Source: an uncultured Rhodospirillaceae bacterium
GTDB lineage: Bacteria; Pseudomonadota; Alphaproteobacteria; MPNO01
Assembly (NCBI GenBank): GCA_964587515.1
Contig: CAZPMO010000003.1
Coordinates: 13,002 to 64,699 of the forward strand
Length of the DNA stretch: 51,698 nucleotides
Direction: 5' to 3'
Both the position numbers and the translations under genes were made by a program. The notes under the pieces were generated by a model. The model was given only the letters and a program-made list of their open reading frames with translations. It was not told the origin of the DNA and did no database searches. This document shows, in pieces, positions 1-31,853 of this stretch. Positions within the stretch are counted from its first letter, which is position 1. Each line of letters opens with the position of its first letter.

Positions 1-151
1 TGTTGGTGGATCATGGTCTATACAGGCTATGGATGAAGAGTGTGGGTAGTATTGCCAAGGTTGGTGGTGCGTCGAAGGTGGGGGAATGAACGAAATTGTC
101 GTCGCGGCCGCAATGGCGATCCGGCCAATTCGATGCGATGGAGATACCAAA

Positions 152-2050
152 ATGACTGGACGAGTTTCTGGCGTCGTTTTCGGCCGGCTTGTTTCGCTTG
201 CCCTGCCGATGATCATGACGGCCGCGATTTCCATCGGCGTCGTGATCGGAACCGGCGCGGCGGTGGCGGAGCCGGCGACGACCCTGGTGGCTAAGGGTGG
301 CGACGATCTGCTGAAGGGCGGCGACGATCTGCTGAAAGAGAGCGAGAAAAGCGCCGTGAAGAAAGAGGTCGAGGACGCCGAGTCGGTTTCGTCCAAAGCC
401 CACGAAGAGCTGTTCGCCGAAAGCCGCTTTCCCTCGGCCGCCACCTGCGGCACCTGCCATCCGAAGCAATACAAGGAATGGTCGGTTTCCCAGCACTCAT
501 ATGCCCAGCTCAGCCCCGTCTATATGGCGATCAACAATTTCATCAATTCGATCGCCAACGGCAGCAACGGCGATTTCTGCCTGAGATGCCACAGCCAGGT
601 CGGCGCCAGCCTGGGCGAATCGCCGGCGATTTCGAACCTCGACCGGCATCCGACTTCCCGCGAAGGCATCACCTGCGTGGTCTGCCACCGTGTGGACAAG
701 GACTACAACAAGGCCAGCGGCCGCCTCGCGCTGGTCGAGGGTGACCTGCTGCAACCGGTATTCGGTCCGATGGGCAACGCGGAGATGGCGCGCGTCCTCG
801 ACAATACCGACAAATACCGCGTGGTGACCGACCCCAATAAACAGGGCCGCAAGATCCACGTGAAGGTCAAGAAATTCCCGTCGATTTCCCAACCGGTGTT
901 CTGTGGTTCGTGTCACGACGTAACGCTGTTCAACGGGTTCCGGCTGGAAGAAGCATTCAGCGAATACCGTACTTCGCCGGCGGCGGCGCGTGGCGAGACC
1001 TGTCAGGACTGCCACATGGGCAAAATCCAGGGCAAGGTCTCGGGTTACGAGGTGGGCCCGGCGGCGGTGGTCGGCGGCGTACCGACCAAACCGCGCAAGC
1101 TGGCCAATCACTTCTTCGCGGGACCGGATTATTCGGTCATCCATCCGGGCATATTTCCGCACAACGCCGAAGCGCAGCAGATGGCCACACTGCGCGAATG
1201 GTTGCTGTTCGACCACAAGGCGGGCTGGGGCGACGACAAGTTCGAGGACAAGGTCACCGACGCCACCAAGTTTCCGAAGCGCTGGGAATCGGCGGACGAC
1301 CGCTACGACGCGCGCGAAATCCTCAACACCCAGTTCGAACGGCTTGAATGGGCGCATCAGAAGCGGCTGGAAGTCCTGCGCGTCGGTTATCTGATGACCG
1401 ACATCAAGACATTGAAGGCGAACAAGGACGGCATCCAGTTCTCGGTCAAGGTCGAGAACGGAACCGACGGGCATAACGTCCCGACCGGATTTACCGGCGA
1501 ACGGCTGGTGTTTCTCCAGGTCACCGTGACGGACGCCATGGGCAAAATCATTTTCAAATCCGGCGACCGCGATCCCAACGGTGATCTGCGCGATCATTAT
1601 TCGTCCTATGTGCGCAGCGGCGACTTGGAACTCGACGATTCCCTGTTCAGCCTGCAATCGCACTTTGTCGTGGCAAACGGGCGCGGCAGCGAACGCGAAC
1701 GAATCATCCCGATCCCCTATCCGTCGACTTCGCTGCCGCGTGTTCTACCCTCGCCGGTATCGCTGATCTTCACCGGCGAGCCTCCGACCGAGCGCAATCA
1801 TCGCAAGGGGATCGAACCCAACGGACATCGCATCGCCAAATACAAGATCAGCGGCGACGCGCTGACCGGCAGGGGGCCCTATCGCGCCAACATCAAGCTG
1901 ATCTCTCAGATGGCGCCGGCCAACCTGATAGGCGCGATCCAGAGCGTTGGCTTCGATTACGGCATGAGCCCGGCCGAAGTGGTCGCGGGCGTCGCAGCGG
2001 GCGCCGACGTTCTTTGGGAAAAAAATCTGACATTCAATATCGGAAACTGA
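152..2050 (+). CDS. Secreted pentaheme c-type cytochrome
   Basis: ORF 86..2050 has five CxxCH motifs (CGTCH, CLRCH, CVVCH, CGSCH, CQDCH). The ATG at 152 is preceded by TGGAGA (139-144) and gives a signal-peptide-like N-terminus (MTGRVSGVVFGRLVSLALPMIMTAAISIGVVIGTGAAVA/EP). Alternative starts are 86 and 113. Confidence 0.8.
   Translation: MTGRVSGVVFGRLVSLALPMIMTAAISIGVVIGTGAAVAEPATTLVAKGGDDLLKGGDDLLKESEKSAVKKEVEDAESVSSKAHEELFAESRFPSAATCGTCHPKQYKEWSVSQHSYAQLSPVYMAINNFINSIANGSNGDFCLRCHSQVGASLGESPAISNLDRHPTSREGITCVVCHRVDKDYNKASGRLALVEGDLLQPVFGPMGNAEMARVLDNTDKYRVVTDPNKQGRKIHVKVKKFPSISQPVFCGSCHDVTLFNGFRLEEAFSEYRTSPAAARGETCQDCHMGKIQGKVSGYEVGPAAVVGGVPTKPRKLANHFFAGPDYSVIHPGIFPHNAEAQQMATLREWLLFDHKAGWGDDKFEDKVTDATKFPKRWESADDRYDAREILNTQFERLEWAHQKRLEVLRVGYLMTDIKTLKANKDGIQFSVKVENGTDGHNVPTGFTGERLVFLQVTVTDAMGKIIFKSGDRDPNGDLRDHYSSYVRSGDLELDDSLFSLQSHFVVANGRGSERERIIPIPYPSTSLPRVLPSPVSLIFTGEPPTERNHRKGIEPNGHRIAKYKISGDALTGRGPYRANIKLISQMAPANLIGAIQSVGFDYGMSPAEVVAGVAAGADVLWEKNLTFNIGN
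293..334 (+). repeat. In-frame 2 x 21-bp tandem repeat encoding KGGDDLL KGGDDLL
   Basis: aagggtggcgacgatctgctg / aagggcggcgacgatctgctg read directly from the sequence, with one synonymous difference. It lies just after the predicted signal peptide of the pentaheme cytochrome. Confidence 0.9.
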
Positions 2051-2130
2051 TGCAACGATAACCGGATAACGTAAGTCCCGATCGCGACGACACCGGCCGT
2101 GCGGGATCTACAAAGGAAATAGTCGAGACC

Positions 2131-3579
2131 ATGTCGATGGCAAAACAGTACCAGGAACGGGTGGGCGGCGTTGGCGCCGTCTGCGTCTTCCTTATCGCGC
2201 TGATGGCGGCGCCGCTGACCGCCCCGTCGGCGTGGTCCGCGGAGGGATATGGCGGCGGCATTTTCCCGCTCGGCGAAAGAAATCCGCCGCCGAAGTTCCC
2301 GGACAAGCCGGTCCCCTTTAAATCGATCGAGGACCTTCCCGCGCGCCCGGCGCTCGGCATCGAAATCGGCGACCCCTTCCTCGACACCGGCAAGCTCGAC
2401 GCCGGGTTTGAGACGCCCTGGGGTGCCGTCTGGCAGCCCAGACTCTGGGGCTACATGATCTATCGGACCGCGTTTCAACATTTCGAGACCGCGACCCGCG
2501 CCAACAACGAATGGGCCAACCGGCTGGATGTGTTCCTGAACCTCCAGCTCACCGGCACCGAGAAAATACTTCTCAATCTGCGGCCGCTCGACACCAACCG
2601 GCCCACTGAATTCACCCGATACAGCTTCGACGATCCGCGTGGCGGCGAAGGATATGTCGGCGAATATAACTCTGAAGTCGAAGCGCTGTTCTTCGAGGGC
2701 GATCTCGGCAGTCTGATCCCGGCGATCGACCGCGAAGGCATCACGCCCTTGGATTTCGGCTTCACCGTCGGGCGTCAGGCGATCACCTTCCAGGAAGGCA
2801 TGCTGATCAACGATACGGTGAACATGGTCGGGCTGGTGCGCAACAATTTGTATCTGCCGGGGGTGAGTTCGCTCCGCATGTCGGGAATGTGGGCCTGGGA
2901 CCGCGCCGACCGCGGCGTTACGGACGCCGACACCTCGACCTTCGCCCTGTTCAGTTCGGCCGATATGCCGAAAAGCACCGTCAGTCTCGATGTGATCTAT
3001 ATCGAGGATGAAGGCCAGAATGGCGACGCCTTTTATGTCGGCGCGTCGTCGATACAGCGCATCGGACTGTTCAACACCGCGTTTCGCATCAACAACTCCG
3101 TTGCTCTGGATGACGATCGCCAAGGTGTCGCCGACGGCTCGCTGCTTTCGGCCGAGGTATCATGGACACCGCATAACTCAGACGACATCATTTATGTGAA
3201 CCCATACATCTCGCTCGGCAATTTCACGCAGGCGGGCCGCGAGGCCATTGTCGGCGGTCCGCTGGCCGCGCTGGGCATCCTGTTCGCATCGCCGAGCCTC
3301 GCAAACTACGGTGCCGAATTGAATCCATTCACCGATGACGTCACCGGGTTCGCCGCGGGCTATCAGGCTTTCTGGGACAGTCATCGGCGCAATCTCGCGC
3401 TCGAAGTCGCAACGCGGAAAAACACCAGCGGCAGCGGCGGCGATTCGCTGGGGCTGGGCTTCCAGTTGCAACAGGCGCTGGGCCGGCATTTTCAGGTTCA
3501 ATTAGAAGGATTCTACAGTTTTATCGAAAACAGAGACAATTCGAACGGCGCTCGGGTGGAATTGCAGATCGTCTATTAA
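2131..3579 (+). CDS. Putative outer-membrane beta-barrel protein (porin-like)
   Basis: 482-aa ORF with an N-terminal signal peptide (VCVFLIALMAAPLTAPSAWSA/EG). The sequence has an alternating hydrophobic character, many Gly/Asn/Asp turns and no Cys-rich motifs. The C-terminus (GARVELQIVY) ends in an aromatic residue, as in OM barrels. No family could be assigned by eye. Confidence 0.55.
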   Translation: MSMAKQYQERVGGVGAVCVFLIALMAAPLTAPSAWSAEGYGGGIFPLGERNPPPKFPDKPVPFKSIEDLPARPALGIEIGDPFLDTGKLDAGFETPWGAVWQPRLWGYMIYRTAFQHFETATRANNEWANRLDVFLNLQLTGTEKILLNLRPLDTNRPTEFTRYSFDDPRGGEGYVGEYNSEVEALFFEGDLGSLIPAIDREGITPLDFGFTVGRQAITFQEGMLINDTVNMVGLVRNNLYLPGVSSLRMSGMWAWDRADRGVTDADTSTFALFSSADMPKSTVSLDVIYIEDEGQNGDAFYVGASSIQRIGLFNTAFRINNSVALDDDRQGVADGSLLSAEVSWTPHNSDDIIYVNPYISLGNFTQAGREAIVGGPLAALGILFASPSLANYGAELNPFTDDVTGFAAGYQAFWDSHRRNLALEVATRKNTSGSGGDSLGLGFQLQQALGRHFQVQLEGFYSFIENRDNSNGARVELQIVY

Positions 3580-3621
3580 CGCGGCGGCTTTCGGGAGTAA
3601 CGGGGGTTGAGAAGCTAGATC

Positions 3622-4905
3622 GTGTCCACGCTGATGTCAGGCGAGGTGTTCGTGTTGATCGGCGAGATCATCGTGGTCGGGGTGGCATTGCAGACCCTGG
3701 CCCTGGTCTATATTTCGTGGCGCCGGGTCACCCAGGAAAATCGACGATCGCAGGTCGCCTTTCAGTTCCTCGAATCGGAAATCGCCGCGCGGCGCTCACA
3801 CAACAAAGTTGAAGCGGACCGCTCGGCGCTATCGTGGAACGGAACGCGCAAATTCGAAATTCGTCAAAAAACCGTGGAAGGCGGCGACATCTGTTCGTTT
3901 TATCTCGCCCCGCATGACGGCAAACCGCTACCGCCGTTTCTGCCCGGTCAATATCTGACTTTCCATCTCAAGGTTCCTGGCCAGGAAAAGCCTGTCATTC
4001 GCTGCTATTCGCTTTCCGACAGCCCGTCCAACCCGGAACGCTACAGGGTCTCGATCAAGCGGGCGCCGCCACCGCGCGACAACCCCGATGCGCCGCCCGG
4101 CCTGTCCTCCAATTTCTTCCACGACCAACTGGCCGAGGGCGACATTGTCGATGCGAAAGCGCCGTCCGGACATTTCTTTCTGGATCTCAATCGCTATACG
4201 CCGGTCGTGCTCATGTGCGGCGGCGTCGGAATTACGCCGTTGCTCAGCATGCTGCTTGCCATCTGCGAAGGCGATTTCAAACGCGAGACCTGGTTCTTCT
4301 ATGGCGTTCGCAACAAGCAGGAACACATCATGGGCGAGATGTTGCGCGATATCGCCCGAGCGCATGAGAACGTCCATCTCCACGTCTGTTACAGCGATCC
4401 GGAACCGGGCGACCGGCAAGGCGTCGACTATCAACACGCTGAACGGATCAGTCTCGACCTGCTGAAACGCCTGTTGCCGTCCAACAACTACGAATTCTAC
4501 TATTGTGGGCCGCCGCCGATGATGGAGAGCCTGACCCAGGGCCTTAAGGAGTGGGGCGTTCCCGATGCGCAAATCAATTACGAGGCCTTCGTGGCGGCCA
4601 GCGTGCAAAAGGCCAAACCGAAGCCGGCCGCCGGGGCGGACGCCGCGACGGCCTATCAGATCGAATTCGCCCATTCGGGAACGACACTCGACTGGTCCCC
4701 GGATGCGGAATCGATCCTGGAATTCGCCGAAAATAACGGAATTGCCATGGACAGCGGCTGCCGCGCCGGAAATTGCGGCACCTGCCTGACGGCGATCACG
4801 GCGGGCGGGGTCTCCTATCTCAGCGAACCCGGCCAGGCGCCGGAAGACGGATCGTGCCTGGCCTGCATCGCGGTGCCGAATTCCAACCTGACGCTGGACG
4901 CTTGA
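3622..4905 (+). CDS. Membrane-anchored FNR-type oxidoreductase (FAD-binding, NAD(P)-binding, C-terminal plant-type 2Fe-2S ferredoxin domain)
   Basis: N-terminal hydrophobic helix (VFVLIGEIIVVGVALQTLALVYISW). RxYS FAD motif (RCYSLSD), GGxGxxP motif (GGVGITPLLSM) and YYCGPPPM. C-terminal CRAGNCGTCLTAI...CLAC. GTG start at 3622; alternative ATG at 3634. Confidence 0.8.
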   Translation: MSTLMSGEVFVLIGEIIVVGVALQTLALVYISWRRVTQENRRSQVAFQFLESEIAARRSHNKVEADRSALSWNGTRKFEIRQKTVEGGDICSFYLAPHDGKPLPPFLPGQYLTFHLKVPGQEKPVIRCYSLSDSPSNPERYRVSIKRAPPPRDNPDAPPGLSSNFFHDQLAEGDIVDAKAPSGHFFLDLNRYTPVVLMCGGVGITPLLSMLLAICEGDFKRETWFFYGVRNKQEHIMGEMLRDIARAHENVHLHVCYSDPEPGDRQGVDYQHAERISLDLLKRLLPSNNYEFYYCGPPPMMESLTQGLKEWGVPDAQINYEAFVAASVQKAKPKPAAGADAATAYQIEFAHSGTTLDWSPDAESILEFAENNGIAMDSGCRAGNCGTCLTAITAGGVSYLSEPGQAPEDGSCLACIAVPNSNLTLDA

Positions 4906-6005
4906 TGAAAATCGACAACTCCGTTGCCCTTCCCCGGCAACGGCCTTCGAAAAGGATTACGATATTGCAAAATACAGCCCCGTCGATCTGGACTGGACCC
5001 CTAAGGCGCATTGCATGCGCAAGCGCGCTTCTTTTGGCCGTTTTCCTGACCTGGGCCCCGGCCACGGCGGAGATCGTGCTCAGGCTCGATCCGGCCAATG
5101 TCGCCGGCCCCAAGGCCTGTGCGGAATGCCACATCTCGTCGGCCAAGGTGTGGAAGGAGACCCAGCACGCTAAGACGTTCAAGGCGTTGCCGCGCAAGAA
5201 ATCGGCCAAGGAAATCGCCAAGCGAATGGGGCTGCGGCGGATCAAGGCGGGCAGCGATTGCCTGACCTGCCATTTCACCTCTAATTTGAAAAACAACAAA
5301 CCGAAGCCCATCGCAGGCGTGACCTGCGAATCATGCCATGGCGCGGGCAAGAAATGGATCGACGTTCATAGCGATTTCGGCGGCAAGAAAGTTACCGCGA
5401 AGACTGAAAAACCGGCCCACAAGAAAACGCGATATGAAAAATCGGAGGCGGCAGGCATGCTGCGCCCGAGCCGCCTCTATCAGGTCGCGGCCAATTGCTA
5501 TAGCTGCCACACCGTTCCCAACGAGAAGCTGGTCAATGTGGGCGGCCATCCGGTTGGCAGCAAGTTCGAGCTGGTGTCCTGGTCGCAGGGCGAGGTCCGC
5601 CACAATGTCTGGTACACCAAGGAGAACCGCAACGCGGCCGCCAACCGCAAGCGCATGATGTATATCGTGGGCAAGGCGCTAGACCTCGAATTCGCGCTGC
5701 GCGGCGTCGCGAAGGCGACACAACGCGAACGATATGCGGTCGCCATGGCCAAGCGCGCAGCCGCGGCGCGGGCCGATCTGAAAAAGATCGGAGCCGCGAT
5801 TTCCGCGCCCGAGATCAAACAGATCATCCAGATCGGTGACGGCGCAAAGCTCAAACTCAACAACGGAGCGCCACTCACAGCGGCGGCCGACAAGATCGCG
5901 GCGGCGGCGAAAAAGCTCGCCGCAAATCACGACGGCGCGAATTTCGCCGGCGTCGATTCACTGATCCCCAAGCCGGCGAACTACAAGGGCAAGGCGTCGC
6001 AATAA
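4905..6005 (+). CDS. Periplasmic tetraheme c-type cytochrome
   Basis: Four CxxCH motifs (CAECH, CLTCH, CESCH, CYSCH). Signal-peptide-like segment IACASALLLAVFLTWAPATA/EI. The ATG at 4905 overlaps the TGA of the upstream gene (TGATG, 4903-4907). The longer ORF from 4773 overlaps the reductase gene and is unlikely. Confidence 0.8.
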   Translation: MKIDNSVALPRQRPSKRITILQNTAPSIWTGPLRRIACASALLLAVFLTWAPATAEIVLRLDPANVAGPKACAECHISSAKVWKETQHAKTFKALPRKKSAKEIAKRMGLRRIKAGSDCLTCHFTSNLKNNKPKPIAGVTCESCHGAGKKWIDVHSDFGGKKVTAKTEKPAHKKTRYEKSEAAGMLRPSRLYQVAANCYSCHTVPNEKLVNVGGHPVGSKFELVSWSQGEVRHNVWYTKENRNAAANRKRMMYIVGKALDLEFALRGVAKATQRERYAVAMAKRAAAARADLKKIGAAISAPEIKQIIQIGDGAKLKLNNGAPLTAAADKIAAAAKKLAANHDGANFAGVDSLIPKPANYKGKASQ

Positions 6006-6044
6006 CCGACCGGCGACCGCGGTCGGCGGTTGCATGGAGGACTG

Positions 6045-7754
6045 ATGGCCGACGTTTCCGTCGTCGAACGGCCGCAACGCTGGGATAACCCATTCGACCC
6101 GGACATGACGGAGTCCGACGTCGAATGGGTGATGACGCTGCAACCGTTCTGTGACATGGACGAATCAGGTTTTCCCCGGAACTTGTCGCTCCGCGACGTC
6201 ATCCGTAACGATTCCCGCATCACGCGCTACCGCGAGGGCGAGATCATCATCCGCGAGGGAGACTACGGAAATTCCGCCTTCCTGGTGATGGGGGGAACCG
6301 CACGGGTGATTCTCAGCCCGCCGCTTTCGGCGCGTGAACTCGGCCGGCGGGAGATTAAAAAGAAGGGAATCTGGGGAGCGCTGTCGCAAATTTGGCACAA
6401 TCCGCGCGCGCCGGAGGTTCGCGATCGCGCGCAATATTACGACCGCGCGACCAGCGGCGGGCTTGGCGCGGGTGAAAACGATCATACGATGCTGGGCGAT
6501 ATCGCCGCGATCATGGAGCAACACCGCACTGCCCAGTTTCTGGTCGGGGACACGTTCGGCGAAATCGCCGCCATGGGGCGCAGACCGCGCGGCGACACCG
6601 TGTTCGCCGACAGCGACGCGGTGCTGCTGGAAATGCGGTGGCAGGGTTTTCGCGATATCCGCCACCGGGTCGGGGCCTACCGCGACTATACCGACCGGAT
6701 TTACCGCGAACGCGGCTTCGAGGCGCATCTGCGCGAAACCGCGCTGCTCGACCGAATCGATGATGACGGCAAAAACCGCCTGATGAAGGATGCGTCTTTC
6801 CAGAGTTATGGCACATTCGAATGGCATTCCACATACAAGACACTGGCCGATCTGACGTTCAACGAGCGCCTGACCCATGAGCCCGTGATAGCCGGCGCCG
6901 GAGATTATCCGGACAGTCTGCTGCTGATCCGATCGGGGTTTTGCCGCGTCACGGAAAATTTCGGCAACAGCGAACGCACGGTGGGTTTTATCGGCCGCGG
7001 CGAATCGTTCGGCCTCGAAGAGCTCGCCCATAACTGGCAGTACGAGGACGAGATCCCTTATCAGCGCAATCTCAGGGCGCTGGGGTATGTAGATTTGCTT
7101 GTGCTGCCGGCCGTCACGGTGGAAGAAATCATTCTGCCGAAGTTGAATGTTTCACAGATGAGCACGCCGGTCGTCGCCGGTCGGGAAACCGATGAAGTCG
7201 TCGAGGCCGAGGACGGCATGGAAACCGGATTGCTCGAATTCATGGTCGAGAACCGTTTCATCAACGGAACGGCGACCATGGTGATCGATTCGGATCGTTG
7301 CGTCCGCTGCGATGATTGCGTGCGCGCATGCGCGGCGGCGCATGACGACAATCCGCGGTTCGTGCGCCACGGGATGCGGCACGGGAAATATCTGGTGATC
7401 AACGCCTGCATGCATTGCACGGACCCGGTATGCATGATCGGCTGTCCCACCGGCGCCATCCATCGCAGCCCGGGCGAGGGCCAAGTGGTCATCAACGACG
7501 CGACCTGCATTGGCTGCGCGGTGTGCGCGACGAGCTGCCCCTACAACAATATCCGCATGGTCGAAATCAGGGATGAGCAGGGAAGCTTCATTTACGACGA
7601 TCAGTCGAAGGCGCTGATGCAGGCGACGAAATGCGACCTTTGCGTCGACCAACTCGGCGGCCCGGCCTGTCAGCGCGCCTGCCCTCACGACGCCTTGCGG
7701 CGAATCAACATGCAGGACCTTTCGGGGAACTGGGACTGGCTGACGGACAATTGA
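6045..7754 (+). CDS. Cytoplasmic protein with two cyclic-nucleotide-binding-like domains fused to a four-cluster [4Fe-4S] polyferredoxin (NrfC/DmsB-type Cys pattern)
   Basis: N-terminal half has CAP/cNMP-like blocks (REGDYGNSAFLVMGG...FGEIAAMGRRPRGDTVFA and a second LLLIRSGFCRV...GESFGLEEL). C-terminal Cys groups are CVRCDDCVRAC, CMHCTDPVCMIGCP, CIGCAVCATSCP and CDLCVDQLGGPACQRACP. No Sec or Tat signal is visible. ATG at 6045 follows GGAGG; a TTG at 6030 is an alternative start. Confidence 0.8.
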   Translation: MADVSVVERPQRWDNPFDPDMTESDVEWVMTLQPFCDMDESGFPRNLSLRDVIRNDSRITRYREGEIIIREGDYGNSAFLVMGGTARVILSPPLSARELGRREIKKKGIWGALSQIWHNPRAPEVRDRAQYYDRATSGGLGAGENDHTMLGDIAAIMEQHRTAQFLVGDTFGEIAAMGRRPRGDTVFADSDAVLLEMRWQGFRDIRHRVGAYRDYTDRIYRERGFEAHLRETALLDRIDDDGKNRLMKDASFQSYGTFEWHSTYKTLADLTFNERLTHEPVIAGAGDYPDSLLLIRSGFCRVTENFGNSERTVGFIGRGESFGLEELAHNWQYEDEIPYQRNLRALGYVDLLVLPAVTVEEIILPKLNVSQMSTPVVAGRETDEVVEAEDGMETGLLEFMVENRFINGTATMVIDSDRCVRCDDCVRACAAAHDDNPRFVRHGMRHGKYLVINACMHCTDPVCMIGCPTGAIHRSPGEGQVVINDATCIGCAVCATSCPYNNIRMVEIRDEQGSFIYDDQSKALMQATKCDLCVDQLGGPACQRACPHDALRRINMQDLSGNWDWLTDN

Positions 7755-8569
7755 AATTTCTCAGACGCAATTTCGTTTATCTGTTTTTGTCGCTGGTCGT
7801 GGCGATCGCGATCGGCCTTTGGGCCGCCGTCACTTCCGCCTCGCTGAAGGACGTGAATTTCCTGACCGGATGGCTGCTGCTGGGGTCGATGATTTTCCTG
7901 GCGCTGTTCAATGTCCGAAAGAAACTGCCGATGATTCCGCTGGGCTCGGCGGCGCTTTGGCTCAATCTGCATATCTATGTCGGCTGGCTGTGCCTCGGCG
8001 TGTTCCTGATCCATAACGGCATCGAACTGCCCAGTGGCATCCTCGAAGCAGTGCTCGCCGCTCTGTTCCTGCTGGTCGCGCTGAGCGGCATTTTCGGCAT
8101 CGTGATCTCGCGCGAATTCGCCAAGCGGCTGACCACATCGGGCGAAGAAGTCGTGTTCGAGCGCATCCCGGCTTTTCGGGAAAAATTGCGGCAACAGGCT
8201 GACAATGTCGCTCTACAGTCGGTCTCGGCAAGCGGCACGTCGACGCTGGCCGATTTTTACGCCGGCCGGCTGAAATTCTTTTTCGAGGGACCGCGCAACT
8301 TCTTGGGTCACGTGTTCGGCTCTCGGCGGGCGCGGTTTGCCCTGCAAAGCGAGATACAGGCCCTGACCCGTTACCTCGATGAAAACGACCGAGCCTACCA
8401 GCAGGAGCTGTCGGAGCTCGTCCACCGCAAAGTCGATCTCGACCACCATCACGCCCTTCAGAAGACGTTGAAGGGCTGGCTGTTTTTTCATATTCCGCTG
8501 ACCTACAGTCTGTTAATCGTGGCCGTCGTGCATGTGGTGATGGTCTACGCCTTTTCGGGAACGCCATAG
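7751..8569 (+). CDS. Integral membrane protein, about 5 TM helices, with paired His-x13-His helices (candidate di-heme b-type electron carrier)
   Basis: Hydrophobic helices are visible in the translation. His74/His88 lie in LHIYVGWLCLGVFLIH and His247/His261 in FFHIPLTYSLLIVAVVHVV. The proposed TTG start at 7751 overlaps the upstream stop (TTGA). The ORF-track start at 7631 would overlap the upstream gene by 124 nt. Confidence 0.6.
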   Translation: MKFLRRNFVYLFLSLVVAIAIGLWAAVTSASLKDVNFLTGWLLLGSMIFLALFNVRKKLPMIPLGSAALWLNLHIYVGWLCLGVFLIHNGIELPSGILEAVLAALFLLVALSGIFGIVISREFAKRLTTSGEEVVFERIPAFREKLRQQADNVALQSVSASGTSTLADFYAGRLKFFFEGPRNFLGHVFGSRRARFALQSEIQALTRYLDENDRAYQQELSELVHRKVDLDHHHALQKTLKGWLFFHIPLTYSLLIVAVVHVVMVYAFSGTP

Positions 8570-10837
8570 ATGGCGGGCCCACTTCAGTCTTTTGATTTTC
8601 GCGATAGCCGTTACAACCGGCCGACCCAGAAATGGGTGTGCGGCTGGGCGGCGAAGGGCGAGGCCTGCCATGTGGGGCCCGACCACAAAGGCAACTGCGT
8701 CGCGACATCCGAATGCCAGCCGATCCGAAACGGCGACCGCTGGATGTGTACGCGTTCCGAAATCGCAGGTGGACGTTGCACGGATGGCCCCATGCCGGAT
8801 GGCGCCTGCGCCTGTGTCATTCGCAAATGTGCGCCGGTGCGCAGCATCCGCGCCCGTCGCGGACTTTTCGCGCGGGTGGTGTCAGCGCTTACCGTCGGGC
8901 TGGTGCTAATTTTCGTATTCGGACCGTCGGCGCATAAGGTGATATCGCCGGGCGCTCTCACACAGCAACATGCGGAAGTGATCGATTGCGGCACCTGCCA
9001 CGCCGCGTTCCCGGCGGGTCCGACCGGTTGGATTCGCGCGGCCTTCTCCGCGGCTCCAAATGACCCGGCGACCAGCGATTCCGGCCGCTGCCTGAAATGC
9101 CATGCACAGGGCGATTCGGCGCTAAATCCGCACAGCCAGGACGCGGCGATGCTGACGAAGATGCGCAAACGCGCGCATCCGCCTTCCAAGCAAGGAACCG
9201 AACCGCTGATGGTTTCGCTGGCGTCCGGCGGCGACCCCGGCGCGGCAACGGCCGGAAAACTGGCCTGCGCGACCTGCCATCGTGAACATCAAGGTCGCAA
9301 CGCCAGGCTGGCGTCCATGAGCGACGCGCGATGTCAGGCATGCCATACGGCGCGGTTCGCCGGGTTGGATTCAGGTCATCCCGAATTCGACCACTATCCC
9401 TACAAACGGCGCACCCGGCTGATTTTCGATCACATCGGCCATATCGAAAAACATTTCAAGGACAAGAAATTCAAACAATCCGCGCCGGATCAATGCACCA
9501 CCTGTCACAGCCCCGACGCCGCCGGCAACACGATGCTGGTGAACGGTTACAAGACCTGTATGGCCTGTCACGCGGCGCAGATCGTGACCGACGGCGGTGC
9601 GACGCCGGTGTTCGCGGTTCCAGGAATCGATGCCCAGACGCTACATGCCAAGGGCGCCCCGATCGGCGCCTGGCCGGAGGACGCGGAGGCGGAACTGACG
9701 CCGTTCATGGTCCTGCTGCTGTCGGGCGATCCCGATTTCCGAGACGCCTGGAATACGGTTCGGGAGCTGAACCTGCTGGATGACCTGGAAGATGCCGACG
9801 CGGCCCAGATCAAGGCCGCGCAAACCGTCGCCTGGTCGGTCAAACGCCTGATCCAAGACCTCCGTGCGAAGGGCGGGGCCGCTCTGGGCGCCCGCATCGA
9901 AACGGCATTGGGATCGACGATCAGCGGCGAAGACCTTGCCCATCTCGCCGGGCGGCTTCCGGTGGACCTGATCGCCAATGCCCGGCGCGAATGGTTCCCC
10001 GATTTGGACGCGGAAATGAAACAACACCGCGCAGGGGTCCCCGTACCGACCCGCACTGCAAGCGATGACGCGCCCCGATCGGAAAAATCCGCCAAGTCCA
10101 AACCGACCAAGGACACCGGCGACATCCTCGCGGGTGGCGACAAGAAGGACACAGGCGACATCCTCGCGGGCGGCGATAAGAAAGACACAGGCGACATCCT
10201 CGCGGGCGGCGACAAGACGGTCTCCACCGCGCCCGTGGAAGAGAATGTCGCGGAGACCGGCGGTGAAATCGACGCCAACAAATGGACCTCGGCGGGCGGC
10301 TGGTATCGCGACCAGTTCACCCTGCTCTATCGCCCGACCGGCCATGCCGACGATTTCTTGCGATCCTGGATGGATCTCACCGGTGCATCTGACAGTAATT
10401 ACGCCAAGTCCGTCTTCGCCTCTTTGACCGCGCGACAAGCCGTCGGGCGATGCGCCAAATGCCATAGCAGCGACAAGATCACCGAAGCGGCGCTGAAACC
10501 CAACTGGGTTGCCGCCCGACCGGTGAAGGAATTCCGCAAATTCACCGGTTTTTCCCACGCCGCCCATTCGAAGCTGTTCAACGACAAGGCCTGTCTGGGC
10601 TGTCACGTACGGGACGATGACTCGAAATATCTCGACGCATTCAAGAACAACGACCCGGCGGTTTTCCAGTCGAATTTCAAACCCATGGAACGACAAACCT
10701 GCGCGCGTTGCCATACGCCGCAACTCGCCGCCGAATCATGCGTTCTCTGTCATCAATATCACGTGGGAAGTTTCCCGCCGGCGATTACGGCGGCGCCAAT
10801 GACAATACCGCGAGCGGGCGAACGGCCCCGCCCATAA
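8570..10837 (+). CDS. Membrane-anchored decaheme c-type cytochrome with Cys-rich N-terminal domain
   Basis: Ten CxxCH motifs (CGTCH, CLKCH, CATCH, CQACH, CTTCH, CMACH, CAKCH, CLGCH, CARCH, CVLCH). Nine Cys lie in the first 87 aa, followed by a TM-like segment (LFARVVSALTVGLVLIFVFGPSA). The ATG directly abuts the upstream TAG (8567-8572). Confidence 0.85.
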   Translation: MAGPLQSFDFRDSRYNRPTQKWVCGWAAKGEACHVGPDHKGNCVATSECQPIRNGDRWMCTRSEIAGGRCTDGPMPDGACACVIRKCAPVRSIRARRGLFARVVSALTVGLVLIFVFGPSAHKVISPGALTQQHAEVIDCGTCHAAFPAGPTGWIRAAFSAAPNDPATSDSGRCLKCHAQGDSALNPHSQDAAMLTKMRKRAHPPSKQGTEPLMVSLASGGDPGAATAGKLACATCHREHQGRNARLASMSDARCQACHTARFAGLDSGHPEFDHYPYKRRTRLIFDHIGHIEKHFKDKKFKQSAPDQCTTCHSPDAAGNTMLVNGYKTCMACHAAQIVTDGGATPVFAVPGIDAQTLHAKGAPIGAWPEDAEAELTPFMVLLLSGDPDFRDAWNTVRELNLLDDLEDADAAQIKAAQTVAWSVKRLIQDLRAKGGAALGARIETALGSTISGEDLAHLAGRLPVDLIANARREWFPDLDAEMKQHRAGVPVPTRTASDDAPRSEKSAKSKPTKDTGDILAGGDKKDTGDILAGGDKKDTGDILAGGDKTVSTAPVEENVAETGGEIDANKWTSAGGWYRDQFTLLYRPTGHADDFLRSWMDLTGASDSNYAKSVFASLTARQAVGRCAKCHSSDKITEAALKPNWVAARPVKEFRKFTGFSHAAHSKLFNDKACLGCHVRDDDSKYLDAFKNNDPAVFQSNFKPMERQTCARCHTPQLAAESCVLCHQYHVGSFPPAITAAPMTIPRAGERPRP
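10109..10216 (+). repeat. In-frame 3 x 36-bp tandem repeat encoding (KDTGDILAGGDK)x3
   Basis: Three near-identical 36-bp units (10109-10144, 10145-10180, 10181-10216) differing only at synonymous positions. They sit between heme motifs 6 and 7 of the decaheme cytochrome. Confidence 0.9.
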
Positions 10838-10852: not shown

Positions 10853-11815
10853 ATGAAATTCGCGACGATCGATGCGCCGCCCGCTGGCCACGTGGGCGTG
10901 CTGACCGGTGAAGACGAAATCCTCGATCTCGCGGCCTTCCGGGAGGTTTCACCCCCGGCGCGGCTGTTGCCCGATAGCTTGCGTGACATTCTGGCGGCGG
11001 GCCGAGAAGGTCTCGATATGGCCCGGCGCTGCATCGACGCGGTCGCTTCCATGAGCGCCGACGAGACGGAACGGCTGCGCGTGACCGGCGCGCTGAAACC
11101 GTTCGCGACGACGCCGCTGCTGGCGCCGATTCCGGAGCCTCGGCTGCTGCTCTCGGTCGGCATGAATTACGGCCGGCACCTGGCCGAGATGAAGGACACG
11201 CCGACCCCCACCCATCCGACCGCCTTCATCAAGGCCGCCACGACCCTGACCGGATCGGGCAAGCCCATCGTGGTGCCGTCGCAATGCGGCGACATGATCG
11301 ATTTCGAGGGCGAATTCTGTTTCGTGTTCGGCCGGTCCTGTCACATGGTCGGCATCGACGAAGCAATGGACTATGTCGCGGGCTACACCATCGCCAACGA
11401 CGTTTCGGCGCGCGACTGGGTGTCGGAGGTGTTCGCCGCGAACGGCTCGTTCGGCGCGATCCACGCCTGGGAACGCAACATCATGGGCAAGCAGCTTCCC
11501 AGCTTTACGCCCTGCGGTCCGGTCATGACGACGGCCGACGAAATTACCGACCCGAACGATCTCCAGCTCACCCTGACCCTCAACGGCGAGGTGATGCAGT
11601 CGACGAAAACCGACGATCTGATCTTCGATATCGCCGAACAGATCGCCTATTTCTCGCAGTGGTACCAGTTCAGCCCGGGCGACGTGGTCACCACGGGTTC
11701 GCCGTCCGGCGTCGGTTTCGGCCGCGATCCGAAAATTTTCATGAAGCCGGGCGATCTGGTGGAGGTCGAGCTCGAAGGAGTGGGAACGCTCTCCAACCGT
11801 CTGATCGCCGGCTAA
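10853..11815 (+). CDS. Fumarylacetoacetate hydrolase (FAH) family protein
   Basis: 320-aa ORF with a typical FAH-family C-terminal domain (GMNYGRHLAEM...IDFEGEFCFVFG...GYTIANDVSARDW...PGDVVTTGSPSGVG). GGGGAAG SD lies before the ATG. Confidence 0.85.
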   Translation: MKFATIDAPPAGHVGVLTGEDEILDLAAFREVSPPARLLPDSLRDILAAGREGLDMARRCIDAVASMSADETERLRVTGALKPFATTPLLAPIPEPRLLLSVGMNYGRHLAEMKDTPTPTHPTAFIKAATTLTGSGKPIVVPSQCGDMIDFEGEFCFVFGRSCHMVGIDEAMDYVAGYTIANDVSARDWVSEVFAANGSFGAIHAWERNIMGKQLPSFTPCGPVMTTADEITDPNDLQLTLTLNGEVMQSTKTDDLIFDIAEQIAYFSQWYQFSPGDVVTTGSPSGVGFGRDPKIFMKPGDLVEVELEGVGTLSNRLIAG

Positions 11816-13560
11816 ACCGCCGCCGCGCGCAGGCGTTCGGTGGCGTCCGCGTCAATCTCGAACGTCTCGGGATCGATGACGACGCCGTAATGTTGCCGCG
11901 CGATCTCGGGCGAGACATAACCCTGTTCCACGTCGCGGCGCACGTCTTCCGCCGGCCGGTACAACGGCGAGCCGAACCCGCCGCCGCCGCCTGAACGCAG
12001 GCAGAACGCGTCACCTTCGCGCAAATTGGCGATCAGCACCTTGGCGTTCGGGAAATCGTCCTTCCATTCGCCGTCGAGCCTGAGCGCCACCGCGTTCCCC
12101 GCGCCGTCGAGCCCGTCCTCCAAGCCCCATGGCGCGCAGTGGACGCGTTCGATCTGGGTGTTGAAGGTGAGATCGGTGCGCGCCTGGACCACGCGCTCGA
12201 TCCCGAGACCGCCGCGATAGCGCCCGGCGCCGCCGGAATCCGTGATCAGCGAATTGCTCTCCACAAGCACCGGGAATTTCGCCTCGATCTGCTCGTTGGG
12301 ACTGTTATGGGTGTCGCCGTCATTGATGCAGACGGTGCCGCTGACGCCGTCCTCGGACTGCTTGGCGCCCCAACCGCCGCCGAGCGGCCCGAAATTGCCG
12401 ATGAAGAATTCCGAGGTGCGGGGATTGATGCCATGAAATGCCGCCGCAAGCAGATCGGCGTGGTGGCCGGCGATGGTGCGATCGGGAATCACCGGGGCCA
12501 GCGCCTTGAAGATGGTGTCGACGATGGTCATGGGAAATGTCATCCACCAACGCATCGGCGCGGGCTTCACCGCGCTGACCACCCGCCCCATGGGGACGAT
12601 GGATTTCAGGTTACGAAACGCGCCCTGGTTGATCGGGTAATCGGTGGGAGAGGTGATGCATTTGAAGGCGACCTGGGCGCAGGCATGGCCGGTGGTCACG
12701 CCGGAATTGAAGAACCCCCTCACCTGATCGGAGACGTCGGTCAGATCGACCGTCATTTCGTCACCCGAGACCTCGACGCGGACGCGGATCGGCACCGGCT
12801 CTCCGACGTTGACGCCGTCGTCATCCATGAAGGATTCGGCCTCGTAGACGCCATCGGGGATGGACCTGGTGTGGACCCGTGCCGCGGCCTCGGAATGGTC
12901 CATGATCACGGCGACGCCGTCGAACACCGCGTCCTGCCCGTAGCGGTCGAGGAGTTCGAGGAAACGCCGTTCACCGGTTTTTACGGCGGTGATCTGGGCC
13001 CTGAGATCGCCCATCGCGCGCGGCGGCAAGCGCACGTTCATGGCGATGATGTCGACGAGATCCTGATTGACCACGCCCGCCTTCTGGTACTTCAGGATCG
13101 GAATTTGAAGACCTTCGGAAAAGATATCGGTGGTCATGCCGCCGAGCACGCCGCCCACATCGAGCCAGTGCGCCATACAGCAGGAAAACGCGACCAGCTT
13201 GCCGTCATGGAAGATCGGCAATGAAAATGTGACGTGGTTGAGATGGCTGCCGGTGATATAGGCGTCGTTGGTGACCAGGATATCGCCGGGCTCGATGCCG
13301 TCCTCGCCAAAATGGTCGATCTTGGCCTTCACGGTCTCGGACATGCCGCGGATGAACATCGGCAGGCCGAGCCCGATTGATACCGTCTCGCCGGTCGCCG
13401 TGAAAATCCCCACGGTGAAGTCGAGCGCCTCGTAGATGATCATGTTGTAGGCGGTGCGCATGAGGTTGGTCTTCATTTCCTCGGTCACCGCCAACACGCC
13501 GTTGCGCACGATCTCGGTAACCACCGGATCGACACCGCGCGATGTTTCGGATGCGCTCAT
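11812..13560 (-). CDS. Hydantoinase B / oxoprolinase family protein
   Basis: Translation from MSASETSRGVDPVVTEIVRNGV... matches the HyuB-type N-terminus and length (582 aa). The ORF-track upstream extension to 13845 is Arg/Pro-rich and overlaps the small ORF. Confidence 0.9.
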   Translation of the reverse strand: MSASETSRGVDPVVTEIVRNGVLAVTEEMKTNLMRTAYNMIIYEALDFTVGIFTATGETVSIGLGLPMFIRGMSETVKAKIDHFGEDGIEPGDILVTNDAYITGSHLNHVTFSLPIFHDGKLVAFSCCMAHWLDVGGVLGGMTTDIFSEGLQIPILKYQKAGVVNQDLVDIIAMNVRLPPRAMGDLRAQITAVKTGERRFLELLDRYGQDAVFDGVAVIMDHSEAAARVHTRSIPDGVYEAESFMDDDGVNVGEPVPIRVRVEVSGDEMTVDLTDVSDQVRGFFNSGVTTGHACAQVAFKCITSPTDYPINQGAFRNLKSIVPMGRVVSAVKPAPMRWWMTFPMTIVDTIFKALAPVIPDRTIAGHHADLLAAAFHGINPRTSEFFIGNFGPLGGGWGAKQSEDGVSGTVCINDGDTHNSPNEQIEAKFPVLVESNSLITDSGGAGRYRGGLGIERVVQARTDLTFNTQIERVHCAPWGLEDGLDGAGNAVALRLDGEWKDDFPNAKVLIANLREGDAFCLRSGGGGGFGSPLYRPAEDVRRDVEQGYVSPEIARQHYGVVIDPETFEIDADATERLRAAAV

Positions 13561-13568
13561 GTTTCCCC

Positions 13569-13811
13569 CTAAAACGAAGGTGGCGTATCGTCGCCGCTCT
13601 TGATCTTCAAACTCAACGACACCCCGCCCGAGCCGCAGCACGGACAGCTCAGCGCGATCAGGATCTGTTGGCGTTCGTCCTCGGTGATATCGGCCTTGTC
13701 CAGAAGCTCTGCGATCTGGCGCTGGAAGGCCAGGTGGACCGACTGATCGCCGAACACGATCCGGTCGTCGGTCTCCGGCGGCTTCGCGGCGGGCGGATCG
13801 GACTTGGACAT
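13569..13811 (-). CDS. Small hypothetical protein (80 aa) with CPCCG motif, co-oriented with hyuB-like gene
   Basis: Its stop lies 8 nt upstream of the hyuB-like ATG. There is strong G/C bias at third codon positions when read by eye. No clear SD and no recognisable family. Confidence 0.45.
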   Translation of the reverse strand: MSKSDPPAAKPPETDDRIVFGDQSVHLAFQRQIAELLDKADITEDERQQILIALSCPCCGSGGVSLSLKIKSGDDTPPSF

Positions 13812-13887
13812 GCTTTATGATAGGCGATGCGGGGAACGCCAACAAGAATGCCCCACCGCGGCGTTTGCCGATGCGGGCGGTTCAAGT

Positions 13888-31482: not shown

Positions 31483-31617
31483 GGAAAAACGCAAAGCCCG
31501 GCCGGCCGGTAAATCGACATTCACCCGTTCAACTGGCATAGCTAAATGCCCACGATTTATTGATCGTGAGTTTTTGATGGGCGAATTCCTTCCTAGAAGC
31601 CCAGTTTTGCAGTTCAA

Positions 31618-31853
31618 ATCAGATTTCGGCTTTGATTGATTAAGAATTCGTTAAACATGGTTTTATCAATAACCGCATTGATCAGATTGGATTTAAATAC
31701 AATTTTATTAAATCTAATTTCAAATTTAGATTAAGTTTATTAAGTATAATTAAAGCATTCGATTCATTAATAAAATAATAATTTTCTTATTCTAAAATAC
31801 CCGTCGAGTTAAGGGATATGTTCATCGCGTTTTAATGTCTCAAGGAGAGACAC
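31618..31853. promoter_or_regulatory. Extremely AT-rich divergent intergenic region
   Basis: My hand count gives 30 G+C in the 160 nt of 31641-31800 (about 19 %). It contains the inverted repeat AATCTAA-N8-TTAGATT (31711-31732). AAGGAGAG SD lies before the ATG at 31854. Confidence 0.5.

Follow-up and report, generated by a model that had tools for sequence, protein, structure and literature searches.

A complete ptdABCDEFG operon in an uncultured Rhodospirillaceae bacterium: gene content, distribution and a candidate route for NAD(P)H electrons across the cell envelope

The ptd locus and its identity

The DNA analysed here (hereafter, the window) is a stretch of 51,698 nucleotides from an uncultured Rhodospirillaceae bacterium (GenBank assembly GCA_964587515.1, contig CAZPMO010000003.1, positions 13,002 to 64,699 of the forward strand), and a cluster of seven genes lies at its start. 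Judged by its sequence, this locus is a complete ptdABCDEFG operon, a further copy of a named, functionally uncharacterised operon. The agreement between the window genes and the published ptdABCDEFG was seven for seven, both in protein types and in order (Table 1).

The operon was named by Elbon, Stewart and Glass (bioRxiv 10.1101/2023.11.21.568154), who interpreted it as a putative porin-cytochrome complex, wrote that its function "remains completely unknown" and found it in marine Alphaproteobacteria of the order UBA11136 and in other phyla. In that paper, PtdB is labelled as a porin encoded directly after PtdA, PtdC as an FAD/NAD(P) oxidoreductase resembling flavohaemoprotein reductase, PtdD as a periplasmic tetrahaem cytochrome, PtdE as a protein that binds cyclic nucleotide monophosphate (cNMP) and carries two 4Fe-4S clusters, PtdF as a ferric-reductase-like transmembrane (TM) protein and PtdG as a decahaem cytochrome; PtdA is placed in the COG that contains NrfA, and PDB entry 5ZE8 is cited as its solved homologue. 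Thus, the cluster is not new, since both its name and the porin-cytochrome label have already been published. Six of the seven defining proteins (PtdA, B, C, D, E and G) were recognised in the window by their published features. Literature searches found neither a functional study of Ptd nor a second paper using the name.

The orthology of the window proteins to those in Table S7 of the ptd paper (e.g., MBT5131319-25) is supported indirectly. A Saanich Inlet Rhodospirillaceae metagenome-assembled genome (MAG) carries a locus (L024) with matches to all seven window proteins at 32-54% identity, and its gene order, A-B-D/G-F-E-C, is the one implied by the accession numbers of the reference operon in the paper. 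MBT-prefixed accessions among the cluster members of one PtdF homologue resemble Saanich Inlet entries, and none of them is among those listed. The window organism lies outside the 20 genomes listed in the paper; no GTDB species representative has a PtdF more than about 52% identical to its own, and the phylum range of PtdF relatives agrees with the published one.

Table 1. Features of the ptd operon, with positions counted in the window
Feature	Position	Strand	Description
ptdA	152..2050	+	Pentahaem c-type cytochrome; signal-peptide-like N-terminus; ~340-aa non-haem C-terminal domain; alternative starts 86 and 80
ptdB	2131..3579	+	Predicted outer-membrane beta-barrel of the 18-strand class; signal peptide; C-terminal ...IVY
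ptdC	3622..4905	+	Membrane-anchored (N-terminal) FNR-type NAD(P)H oxidoreductase; C-terminal plant-type 2Fe-2S; alternative start 3634
ptdD	4905..6005	+	Periplasmic tetrahaem cytochrome, c554 family; Ala/Lys-rich C-terminal tail
ptdE	6045..7754	+	Cytoplasmic; two cyclic-nucleotide-binding-type domains, then a HycB/NrfC/DmsB-type four-cluster polyferredoxin
ptdF	7751..8569	+	Putative di-haem b membrane protein, 5 TM helices; TTG start overlaps the ptdE stop
ptdG	8570..10837	+	Decahaem cytochrome; one TM anchor helix (about residues 97-122)
PtdG N-terminal eight-Cys domain	8570..8860	+	Residues 1-97, on the Arg-rich side of the TM helix
Tandem repeat in ptdG	10109..10217	+	36 nt x 3, Tandem Repeats Finder score 190; encodes KDTGDILAGGDK three times

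An original prediction, made from the letters of the window without database searches, had described seven co-directional genes and 19 c-type haems here. A direct check of the sequence found all seven open reading frames on the + strand at the predicted coordinates, and counting CxxCH motifs gave five in PtdA, four in PtdD and ten in PtdG (19 in total), with none in the other four proteins. The protein types it had assigned also stood in Pfam and NCBIfam. Pfam returned multihaem families for PtdA, PtdD and PtdG, FAD_binding_6, NAD_binding_1 and Fer2 for PtdC, cNMP_binding and Fer4 for PtdE, and no match for the membrane protein PtdF, the last being one of the two outcomes foreseen for it. The novelty that it had implied is not supported, as the same set in the same order had already been named ptdABCDEFG.

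The prediction had further proposed that the last five genes are translationally coupled. All three overlapping or abutting junctions were confirmed in the sequence (TGATG at 4903-4907, TTGA at 7751-7754 and TAGATG at 8567-8572). However, the public gene calls of the Joint Genome Institute (JGI) place the start of ptdA 6 nt upstream of 86, that of ptdC at 3634 and that of ptdD at 5034, so coupling through TGATG between ptdC and ptdD is not certain and makes a weaker case than the other two junctions. The 4905 start of ptdD seems more plausible from its sequence, because a start at 5034 would delete most of the signal-peptide-like h-region. A promoter scan across the operon did no better than shuffled sequences, and a terminator scan was uninformative.

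Predicted features of the Ptd proteins

On the cytoplasmic side, PtdC combines an N-terminal hydrophobic helix with the three Pfam families named above and corresponds to a flavohaemoprotein reductase module (NCBIfam, 1e-74; PDB 1CQX/3OZU, 3e-52). The motifs RCYSLSD, GGVGITP and CGPPPM are all present, and the FAD/NAD motifs (RxYS, GGxGxTP, CGP), together with the four 2Fe-2S cysteines, are kept in 61-62 of 62 sequences; Pfam and motif conservation thus agree with the TM-anchored FNR reductase of the original prediction. NAD_binding_6, the ferric-reductase type, scored 22.3 bits against a cut-off of 22.2 (E 1.5e-4), compared with 68 bits for NAD_binding_1. In Hwanghaeella-type loci, an FHA domain is found at the N-terminus of PtdC, and there are two TM helices in place of the usual single one, so that the FHA and FNR parts would both stay in the cytoplasm. 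FHA domains bind phosphothreonine, and FHA-bearing PtdC genes were seen in loci L001 (6166-8193), L007, L013, L014, L016 and L038. The fusion suggests control by Ser/Thr phosphorylation in these Alphaproteobacteria.

PtdE matched cNMP_binding (3e-21; three stretches for two domains) and many Fer4 families. Its relatives in the PDB are, for the C-terminal part, HycB3/HycB4 (HycB3 at 1e-16), HycB and PsrB/NrfC, and for the other part of the protein, the cyclic-nucleotide-binding (CNB) domains of cGMP-dependent kinase (~1e-6). Sixteen cysteines in four groups are invariant in 68 of 68 sequences (the window protein and 67 homologues), in agreement with the four Cys clusters described earlier for this protein. 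Because all 16 are invariant, PtdE is implied to hold four 4Fe-4S clusters, the two given in the paper being an undercount. The first CNB domain of most homologues has a canonical, PKA/PKG-like phosphate-binding cassette (FGEIAAL..PRTATV), whereas the window protein has the variant cassette FGEIAAMGRRPRGDTV, with PRGDTV. Real cyclic-nucleotide control of PtdE is plausible on these grounds. No export signal was found in PtdC or PtdE, nor a twin-arginine (Tat) motif in PtdE. A Rosetta-stone search for fusions gave a lone PtdE-PtdF "fusion" (P0263), which looks like a frameshift read-through.

The AlphaFold2 model of PtdF (predicted local distance difference test score, pLDDT, 91.6) consists of four TM helices, a helical domain of ~110 residues and a fifth TM helix. 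Two histidine pairs, H74/H88 on TM3 and H247/H261 on TM5, are each 13 residues apart, and all four residues are invariant in 112 sequences; the 5-TM protein with two His-x13-His helices had been foreseen in these terms. By the positive-inside rule, conserved Arg residues at the N-terminus and the conserved R56-K57-K58 loop indicate that both the N-terminus and the helical domain are cytoplasmic. Consequently, TM3 and TM5 run from inside to outside, which puts H74/H247 close to the inner face and H88/H261 close to the outer one. In the model, this geometry is what two stacked bis-His haems would need. Weak Pfam matches within the family were to DUF4405 (77 of 112), Ni_hydr_CYTB (26) and Ferric_reduct (25, the window protein not among them), which we take to form one di-haem cytochrome clan.

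PtdG contains six haem motifs, an insert of ~290 residues and four further motifs, and it matched Paired_CXXCH_1 and the MtrC/MtrF domain families. With ten CxxCH motifs and a single TM helix, it is the TM-anchored decahaem cytochrome anticipated; full-length homologues mostly have ten motifs too, the short (~550-aa) verrucomicrobial forms included. In front of the anchor lies a domain that is described neither in the ptd paper nor in the original prediction. Its eight cysteines (C24, C33, C43, C49, C60, C70, C80 and C87), arranged in two four-Cys halves, are kept in 59-60 of 62 homologues. Among the 150 matches listed of 608 representative proteins, the domain was always N-terminal (within roughly the first 130 residues), and the proteins bearing it were PtdG-sized or fragments. 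It has no Pfam family. Since it stands on the Arg-rich side of the TM helix, it should be cytoplasmic by the positive-inside rule, and its cysteine pattern could bind Fe-S or Zn. The tandem repeat of ptdG sits in the inter-haem insert; its motif is not conserved in homologues, and the repeat is probably a flexible linker.

PtdD, with four CxxCH motifs, belongs to Cytochrome_C554 (8e-17), and its homologues mostly have four haem motifs. In nine planctomycete loci (L017, L019, L021, L027, L028, L033, L058, L076 and L084), ptdD is duplicated in tandem, which gives the order C-D-D-E-F-G.

PtdA matched NCBIfam ExtKL weakly (44.6 bits, cut-off 250) and PDB 5ZE8, the cytochrome c552 of T. tepidum, with E 7.7e-10; the alignment takes in the haem region and, in a second stretch, some of the C-terminal domain. 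Five CxxCH motifs are present in 27 of 29 homologues; one has six, and one 225-aa fragment has none. By sequence, PtdA is a distant relative of ExtKL within a pentahaem family that includes Geobacter ExtKL, c552 and the pentahaem cytochromes of cable bacteria. In Geobacter, extKL share a gene cluster with the porin gene extI. Chen et al. 2019 describe the solved homologue of PtdA as low-potential in their title. Within ptdA, KGGDDLL is encoded twice by a 21-nt x 2 repeat at 293-336. The GGDDLL repeat of PtdA and the GDILAGGD repeat of PtdG are alike and were considered as a shared docking motif, which was rejected, as they are not conserved in homologues.

PtdB has a signal-peptide-like N-terminus, a highly conserved pre-barrel segment of ~65 residues and the sequence end ...VELQIVY. 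Its AlphaFold2 model (mean pLDDT 75.9) shows about 18-21 strands, and a Foldseek search of the PDB returned MOMP (5LDT, 3e-11), then OccK/OprD, AlgE and Wzi, all with probability 1.00. These best matches are all 18-strand outer-membrane barrels (E 3e-11 to 1e-7). The model agrees with the barrel-type C-terminus noted earlier and speaks against the reservation that the candidate might turn out not to be an outer-membrane protein. No family match was found in Pfam or NCBIfam, and none of 640 homologues is named by its source beyond "hypothetical protein". Four homologues (P0209, P0185, P0194 and P0160) carry N-terminal extensions of 130-270 residues with RWLSDSLL...VQLAA repeats after a CC motif. 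In the Rosetta-stone search, the long PtdB homologues proved to be extended by repeats, without cytochrome domains.

All three cytochromes (PtdA, PtdD and PtdG) have an N-terminal signal or anchor. A lipobox cysteine is absent from the three N-termini, and no surface lipoprotein cytochrome is encoded in the cluster.

Distribution, lineage variants and flanking genes

A search of a protein database clustered at 90% (E <= 0.001) gave 962 PtdF homologues, of which the few named by their source are called "hypothetical protein". In a scan of one genome per GTDB species, 475 genomes encoded a PtdF relative. The loci of the best 80 of the 475 were fetched with a neighbourhood of ~10 kb, and their synteny was read by tblastn. 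These 80 carriers are all MAGs, some with isolate labels of bog or groundwater, and belong to Alphaproteobacteria, Gammaproteobacteria, Planctomycetota, Verrucomicrobiota, Lentisphaerales, Nitrospinae, Nitrospirales, Poribacteria, Gemmatimonadales and Thermoanaerobaculia.

Among the 80 loci, the order C-(D)-E-F-G was near-constant wherever the contig reached. The E-F-G trio (the cNMP-polyferredoxin, the 272-aa membrane protein and the decahaem cytochrome), whose co-occurrence had been put forward for checking, stood together in the large majority of loci, and the exceptions were mostly short contigs. The haem counts of 5/4/10 are conserved across homologues. Chance is excluded, because dozens of genomes unrelated to one another carry this gene set. 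PtdA and PtdB are adjacent in every locus that has both, and the pair may lie upstream, downstream, inverted or be absent within 10 kb; PtdAB is a detachable module.

Two lineages depart from this plan. In verrucomicrobial loci L062 (11535-19184), L079, L056, L063 and L082, C-E-F-G is followed by three proteins in the place of PtdAB, namely a two-domain HbpS-like protein, a ~740-aa protein ending in ...TFTY and a decahaem protein of ~1300 aa that contains LVIVD repeats. The ~740-aa protein had no family match and is possibly a larger outer-membrane barrel. In Nitrospirales loci L078 (4769-12703) and L061, the order is A-B-C'-D-F-G and PtdE is truly missing; C' is a membrane-anchored 2Fe-2S ferredoxin of only 155 aa that has no FNR module, and PtdG lacks the eight-Cys domain, its sequence beginning at the TM helix.

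The 10-kb flanks of 81 loci (the 80 surveyed plus L001 and L004, minus one duplicate) contained no accessory or regulatory gene recurrent across phyla, and showed lineage-specific modules instead. On the native contig of the window, the genes upstream of the operon are unrelated housekeeping genes. Downstream of ptdG, at 10853-16026, a fumarylacetoacetate-hydrolase-family gene is followed by hydantoinase/oxoprolinase A and B genes. These downstream genes have no relation to the cluster, which puts the end of the operon at 10837, and the operon forms a compact island between unrelated housekeeping genes. Further along, a 2-kb stretch (30001-32000) has a G+C content of 0.51 against about 0.62 elsewhere in the window and could be foreign DNA or a low-complexity gene. 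Just downstream of it, at 32751-32850, there is a 12-nt x 8 repeat, GGCAGCAGCGGC.

Proposed electron path, its alternatives and related systems

What the analysis shows is which genes are present, their cofactor motifs and conservation, and the predicted folds and sidedness; from these we infer the order of carriers, the direction of flow, the physical assembly and the acceptor in the scheme that follows. We consider it fairly probable that Ptd is a multi-subunit exporter of NAD(P)H electrons, similar to NADPH oxidase (NOX), which bypasses the quinone pool. The path would start at the inner face of the membrane, where PtdC would oxidise NAD(P)H and pass electrons through FAD to its own 2Fe-2S cluster. 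The four 4Fe-4S clusters of PtdE would then hand them on to the haem b that PtdF holds on its cytoplasmic side (His74/His247), from which they would cross the membrane to the outer haem b (His88/His261). The following carriers would be the ten haems of PtdG, the tetrahaem PtdD and the pentahaem PtdA, and PtdA and the PtdB barrel may serve a periplasmic or surface acceptor. A precedent for NAD(P)H electrons reaching a periplasmic partner through a split FNR protein and haem b protein is the Fre-MsrQ-MsrP system of E. coli.

The predicted sidedness is compatible with a continuous path from the cytoplasm to the outer membrane. Incompatible topologies, which the original prediction had named as a danger to its scheme, were not found: PtdC and PtdE lack an export signal, PtdF is predicted to have a His pair near each face, and the cytochromes have a signal or anchor. 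Of its unbroken cofactor chain, the inventory and the sidedness stood, and the ~18-strand barrel weakens the continuation to the outside of the cell. Outward flow is favoured because the redox drop from NAD(P)H and the membrane potential both drive electrons outward, so that energy would be dissipated and not conserved. Dissipative flow, the cNMP domains of PtdE and the FHA fusions of PtdC in some lineages together fit a regulated, on-demand device.

Several points weigh against this proposal. The window PtdF has no Pfam match to a haem b family of its own, its model found no solved relative in the PDB by Foldseek (best E 0.69), and the family profile found nothing below E 0.2 among PDB sequences, so that neither search gave structural support to the ferric-reductase-like label; haem b binding is suggested by the four invariant histidines and the weak family matches. 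The outer end point is the weakest link of the chain. With ~18 strands, the modelled barrel probably lacks the width to enclose a multihaem domain in the manner of MtrB; a surface lipoprotein cytochrome is not among the cluster proteins, and PtdAB is absent from the 10-kb neighbourhood of many verrucomicrobial loci. NAD(P)H is not the universal donor, because the Nitrospirales loci are without the FNR module and PtdE. The eight-Cys domain has no assigned place in the chain. Finally, the proposed function is drawn from sequences and models, and the roles of all Ptd proteins are predicted ones.

A more specific form of the proposal, which we hold to be less likely than not, is a bacterial NOX, independent of quinones and gated by cyclic nucleotides, that is wired to multihaem cytochromes and made of a C-E-F-G engine, interchangeable outer modules and an eight-Cys relay. 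NAD(P)H electrons would then be dumped across the whole envelope on demand, with reductive iron acquisition, extracellular superoxide production or redox balancing in low-oxygen water as possible purposes. The outer module would differ by phylum, being either PtdAB or the large putative barrel with the 1300-aa decahaem protein, and the eight-Cys domain of PtdG would be a new metal-binding docking or relay element.

Among the alternatives, a periplasmic end point survives best, though we regard it as unlikely. It keeps the inner-membrane engine unchanged and lets no electrons exit the cell: PtdA would be a catalytic periplasmic reductase whose substrate could be, for example, a nitrogen oxide, some sulfur species or an oxyanion of selenium or tellurium, and PtdB would be an OprD/AlgE-type solute channel that admits the soluble substrate or releases the product. 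This agrees with the best matches of PtdB, the substrate-specific 18-strand channels OccK/OprD, AlgE and MOMP, with the lack of a lipoprotein or surface cytochrome in the cluster and with the detachability of PtdAB. The ptd paper (bioRxiv 10.1101/2023.11.21.568154) adds the NrfA-containing COG of PtdA and reports that many carriers are nitrite oxidisers or transcribe NO-transforming genes. On the other hand, all five haem motifs of PtdA are plain CxxCH and no catalytic-site signature was identified in it; no enzymatic function is known for its solved relative, and proteins of extracellular electron transfer are linked to the family. The verrucomicrobial replacement of PtdAB, with its ~740-aa protein and ~1300-aa decahaem protein, also looks more wire-like than enzyme-like.

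It is improbable, in our opinion, that the quinone pool is the main electron source of the cytochromes, with PtdF a quinol-interacting cytochrome b, NarI/CymA-like in function, and PtdC and PtdE regulatory or auxiliary. Ni_hydr_CYTB and DUF4405, both among the weak matches of the PtdF family, have quinone-reactive members, and the Nitrospirales loci retain A-B-D-F-G with a small 2Fe-2S ferredoxin and no FNR or PtdE. Yet in most of the 80 loci, F is flanked by C and E, which share its orientation and overlap or abut; the invariant redox motifs of PtdC and PtdE are hard to explain if these proteins carry no electrons, and the ~110-residue domain of PtdF and its cytoplasm-side haem suggest a protein partner there.

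The original prediction had allowed that electrons could equally run inward, the cytochromes collecting them from an extracellular or periplasmic donor for the reduction of cytoplasmic NAD(P)+; FNR-type enzymes and Fe-S chains are reversible in principle, Hmc/Tmc-type complexes carry periplasmic electrons inward, and the carriers include chemolithoautotrophic nitrite oxidisers that need reductant, but we give this very little credence, since the hop from outer to inner haem b would oppose a membrane potential of roughly 150-180 mV and must still reach about -320 mV, uphill to NAD(P)+, for which only donors near the hydrogen potential suffice, while no proton-coupling or quinone-cycle subunit is encoded and the cytoplasmic regulatory domains fit a gated electron leak.

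If the NAD(P)H exporter chain is true, hundreds of mostly uncultured aquatic species from at least eight phyla could bypass the quinone pool and send NAD(P)H electrons to the periplasm or the cell surface. To our knowledge, no quinone-independent route from NAD(P)H to the envelope has been characterised in Gram-negative bacteria. Extracellular superoxide production occurs in marine heterotrophs, and Ptd, if it acts as proposed, could possibly help to explain it. The practical outcome is a re-labelling: the biology is real, and the finding is a rediscovery of a named operon whose core idea had been published. The carriers in Table S7 include Roseibium aggregatum, Tistlia consotensis, Sulfidibacter corallicola and Abyssibacter profundi (bioRxiv 10.1101/2023.11.21.568154), and should these be isolates in culture, the question is open to a direct test.

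In comparison with the published ptd operon, the window locus shares the seven protein types in order, the haem counts of 5/4/10 and 5ZE8 as a PtdA homologue, and the phyla found by us and in the paper coincide in Alphaproteobacteria, Gammaproteobacteria, Nitrospinota/Nitrospirales, Planctomycetota, Verrucomicrobiota and Gemmatimonadota. What the present analysis adds is a PtdE with four rather than two predicted 4Fe-4S clusters, a membrane-anchored PtdG with an eight-Cys domain predicted to be cytoplasmic, the assignment of the PtdB model to the 18-strand class, a constant C-E-F-G core with swappable distal modules, and carriers that include MAGs with non-marine isolate labels (bog, groundwater).

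Among systems of other kinds, the Hmc/Tmc/Qrc/Nhc complexes of sulfate reducers similarly co-encode multihaem c cytochromes, a four-cluster Fe-S protein of the NrfC/DmsB type and a haem b membrane protein, and weak NCBIfam matches to HmcB, DsrO and QrcA were found in the cluster, all far below the family cut-offs. Unlike theirs, the Fe-S protein of Ptd lacks a Tat signal and carries cytoplasmic cNMP domains as a fusion, and there is no NrfD-like, NarI-like or HdrD/CCG subunit. Membership of Hmc/Tmc/Qrc was rejected on the lack of a Tat signal in PtdE and of any NrfD or NarI family match in the cluster.

MtrCAB, PioAB/MtoAB, Geobacter Pcc and ExtHIJKL resemble Ptd in that periplasmic multihaem cytochromes are encoded beside an outer-membrane barrel, and for ExtHIJKL the likeness extends to PtdA as a distant relative of ExtKL, whose genes are clustered with extI. 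MtrB is a barrel of 26 strands that sheathes MtrA, whereas PtdB has about 18. No MtrA/DmsE-family decahaem protein was found at the equivalog level (TIGR03508, 27 bits against a cut-off of 192), and TIGR03507 scored 17.7 bits, below the cut-off of 209. In contrast to porin-cytochrome conduits, Ptd has no surface lipoprotein cytochrome (MtrC/OmcA), and electrons would enter through NAD(P)H and Fe-S clusters, not through a quinol dehydrogenase (CymA, ImcH, CbcL). Membership of Mtr/Pcc was thus rejected, there being no large barrel, MtrA family, surface lipoprotein cytochrome or quinol entry.

There is a functional likeness to NOX and ferric reductases, where two stacked b haems, bound by His pairs on TM3 and TM5, receive electrons from an FNR dehydrogenase and electrons flow from the cytoplasm to the outside of the inner membrane. 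PtdC is such a dehydrogenase, having the FAD and NAD(P)H motifs. Fre-MsrQ-MsrP is alike in its separate flavoprotein and haem protein and in its periplasmic protein acceptor. The differences are that PtdF has 5 TM helices and a large insert between TM4 and TM5 instead of a 6-TM domain, that a minority of PtdF homologues touch Ferric_reduct, weakly, with no fold match to solved NOX structures, and that the 2Fe-2S and four predicted 4Fe-4S clusters of Ptd stand between flavin and haem. The acceptors differ as well, being 19 c-type haems in Ptd and not O2, an Fe(III) chelate or MsrP as in NOX and Fre-MsrQ. NOX/ferric reductase membership was rejected, as PtdF has 5 TM helices and not the 6-TM ferric reductase domain (FRD), with no direct flavin-haem contact. 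By analogy, Ptd would work in the manner of a split NOX/MsrQ system to which a porin-cytochrome-like distal end is attached.

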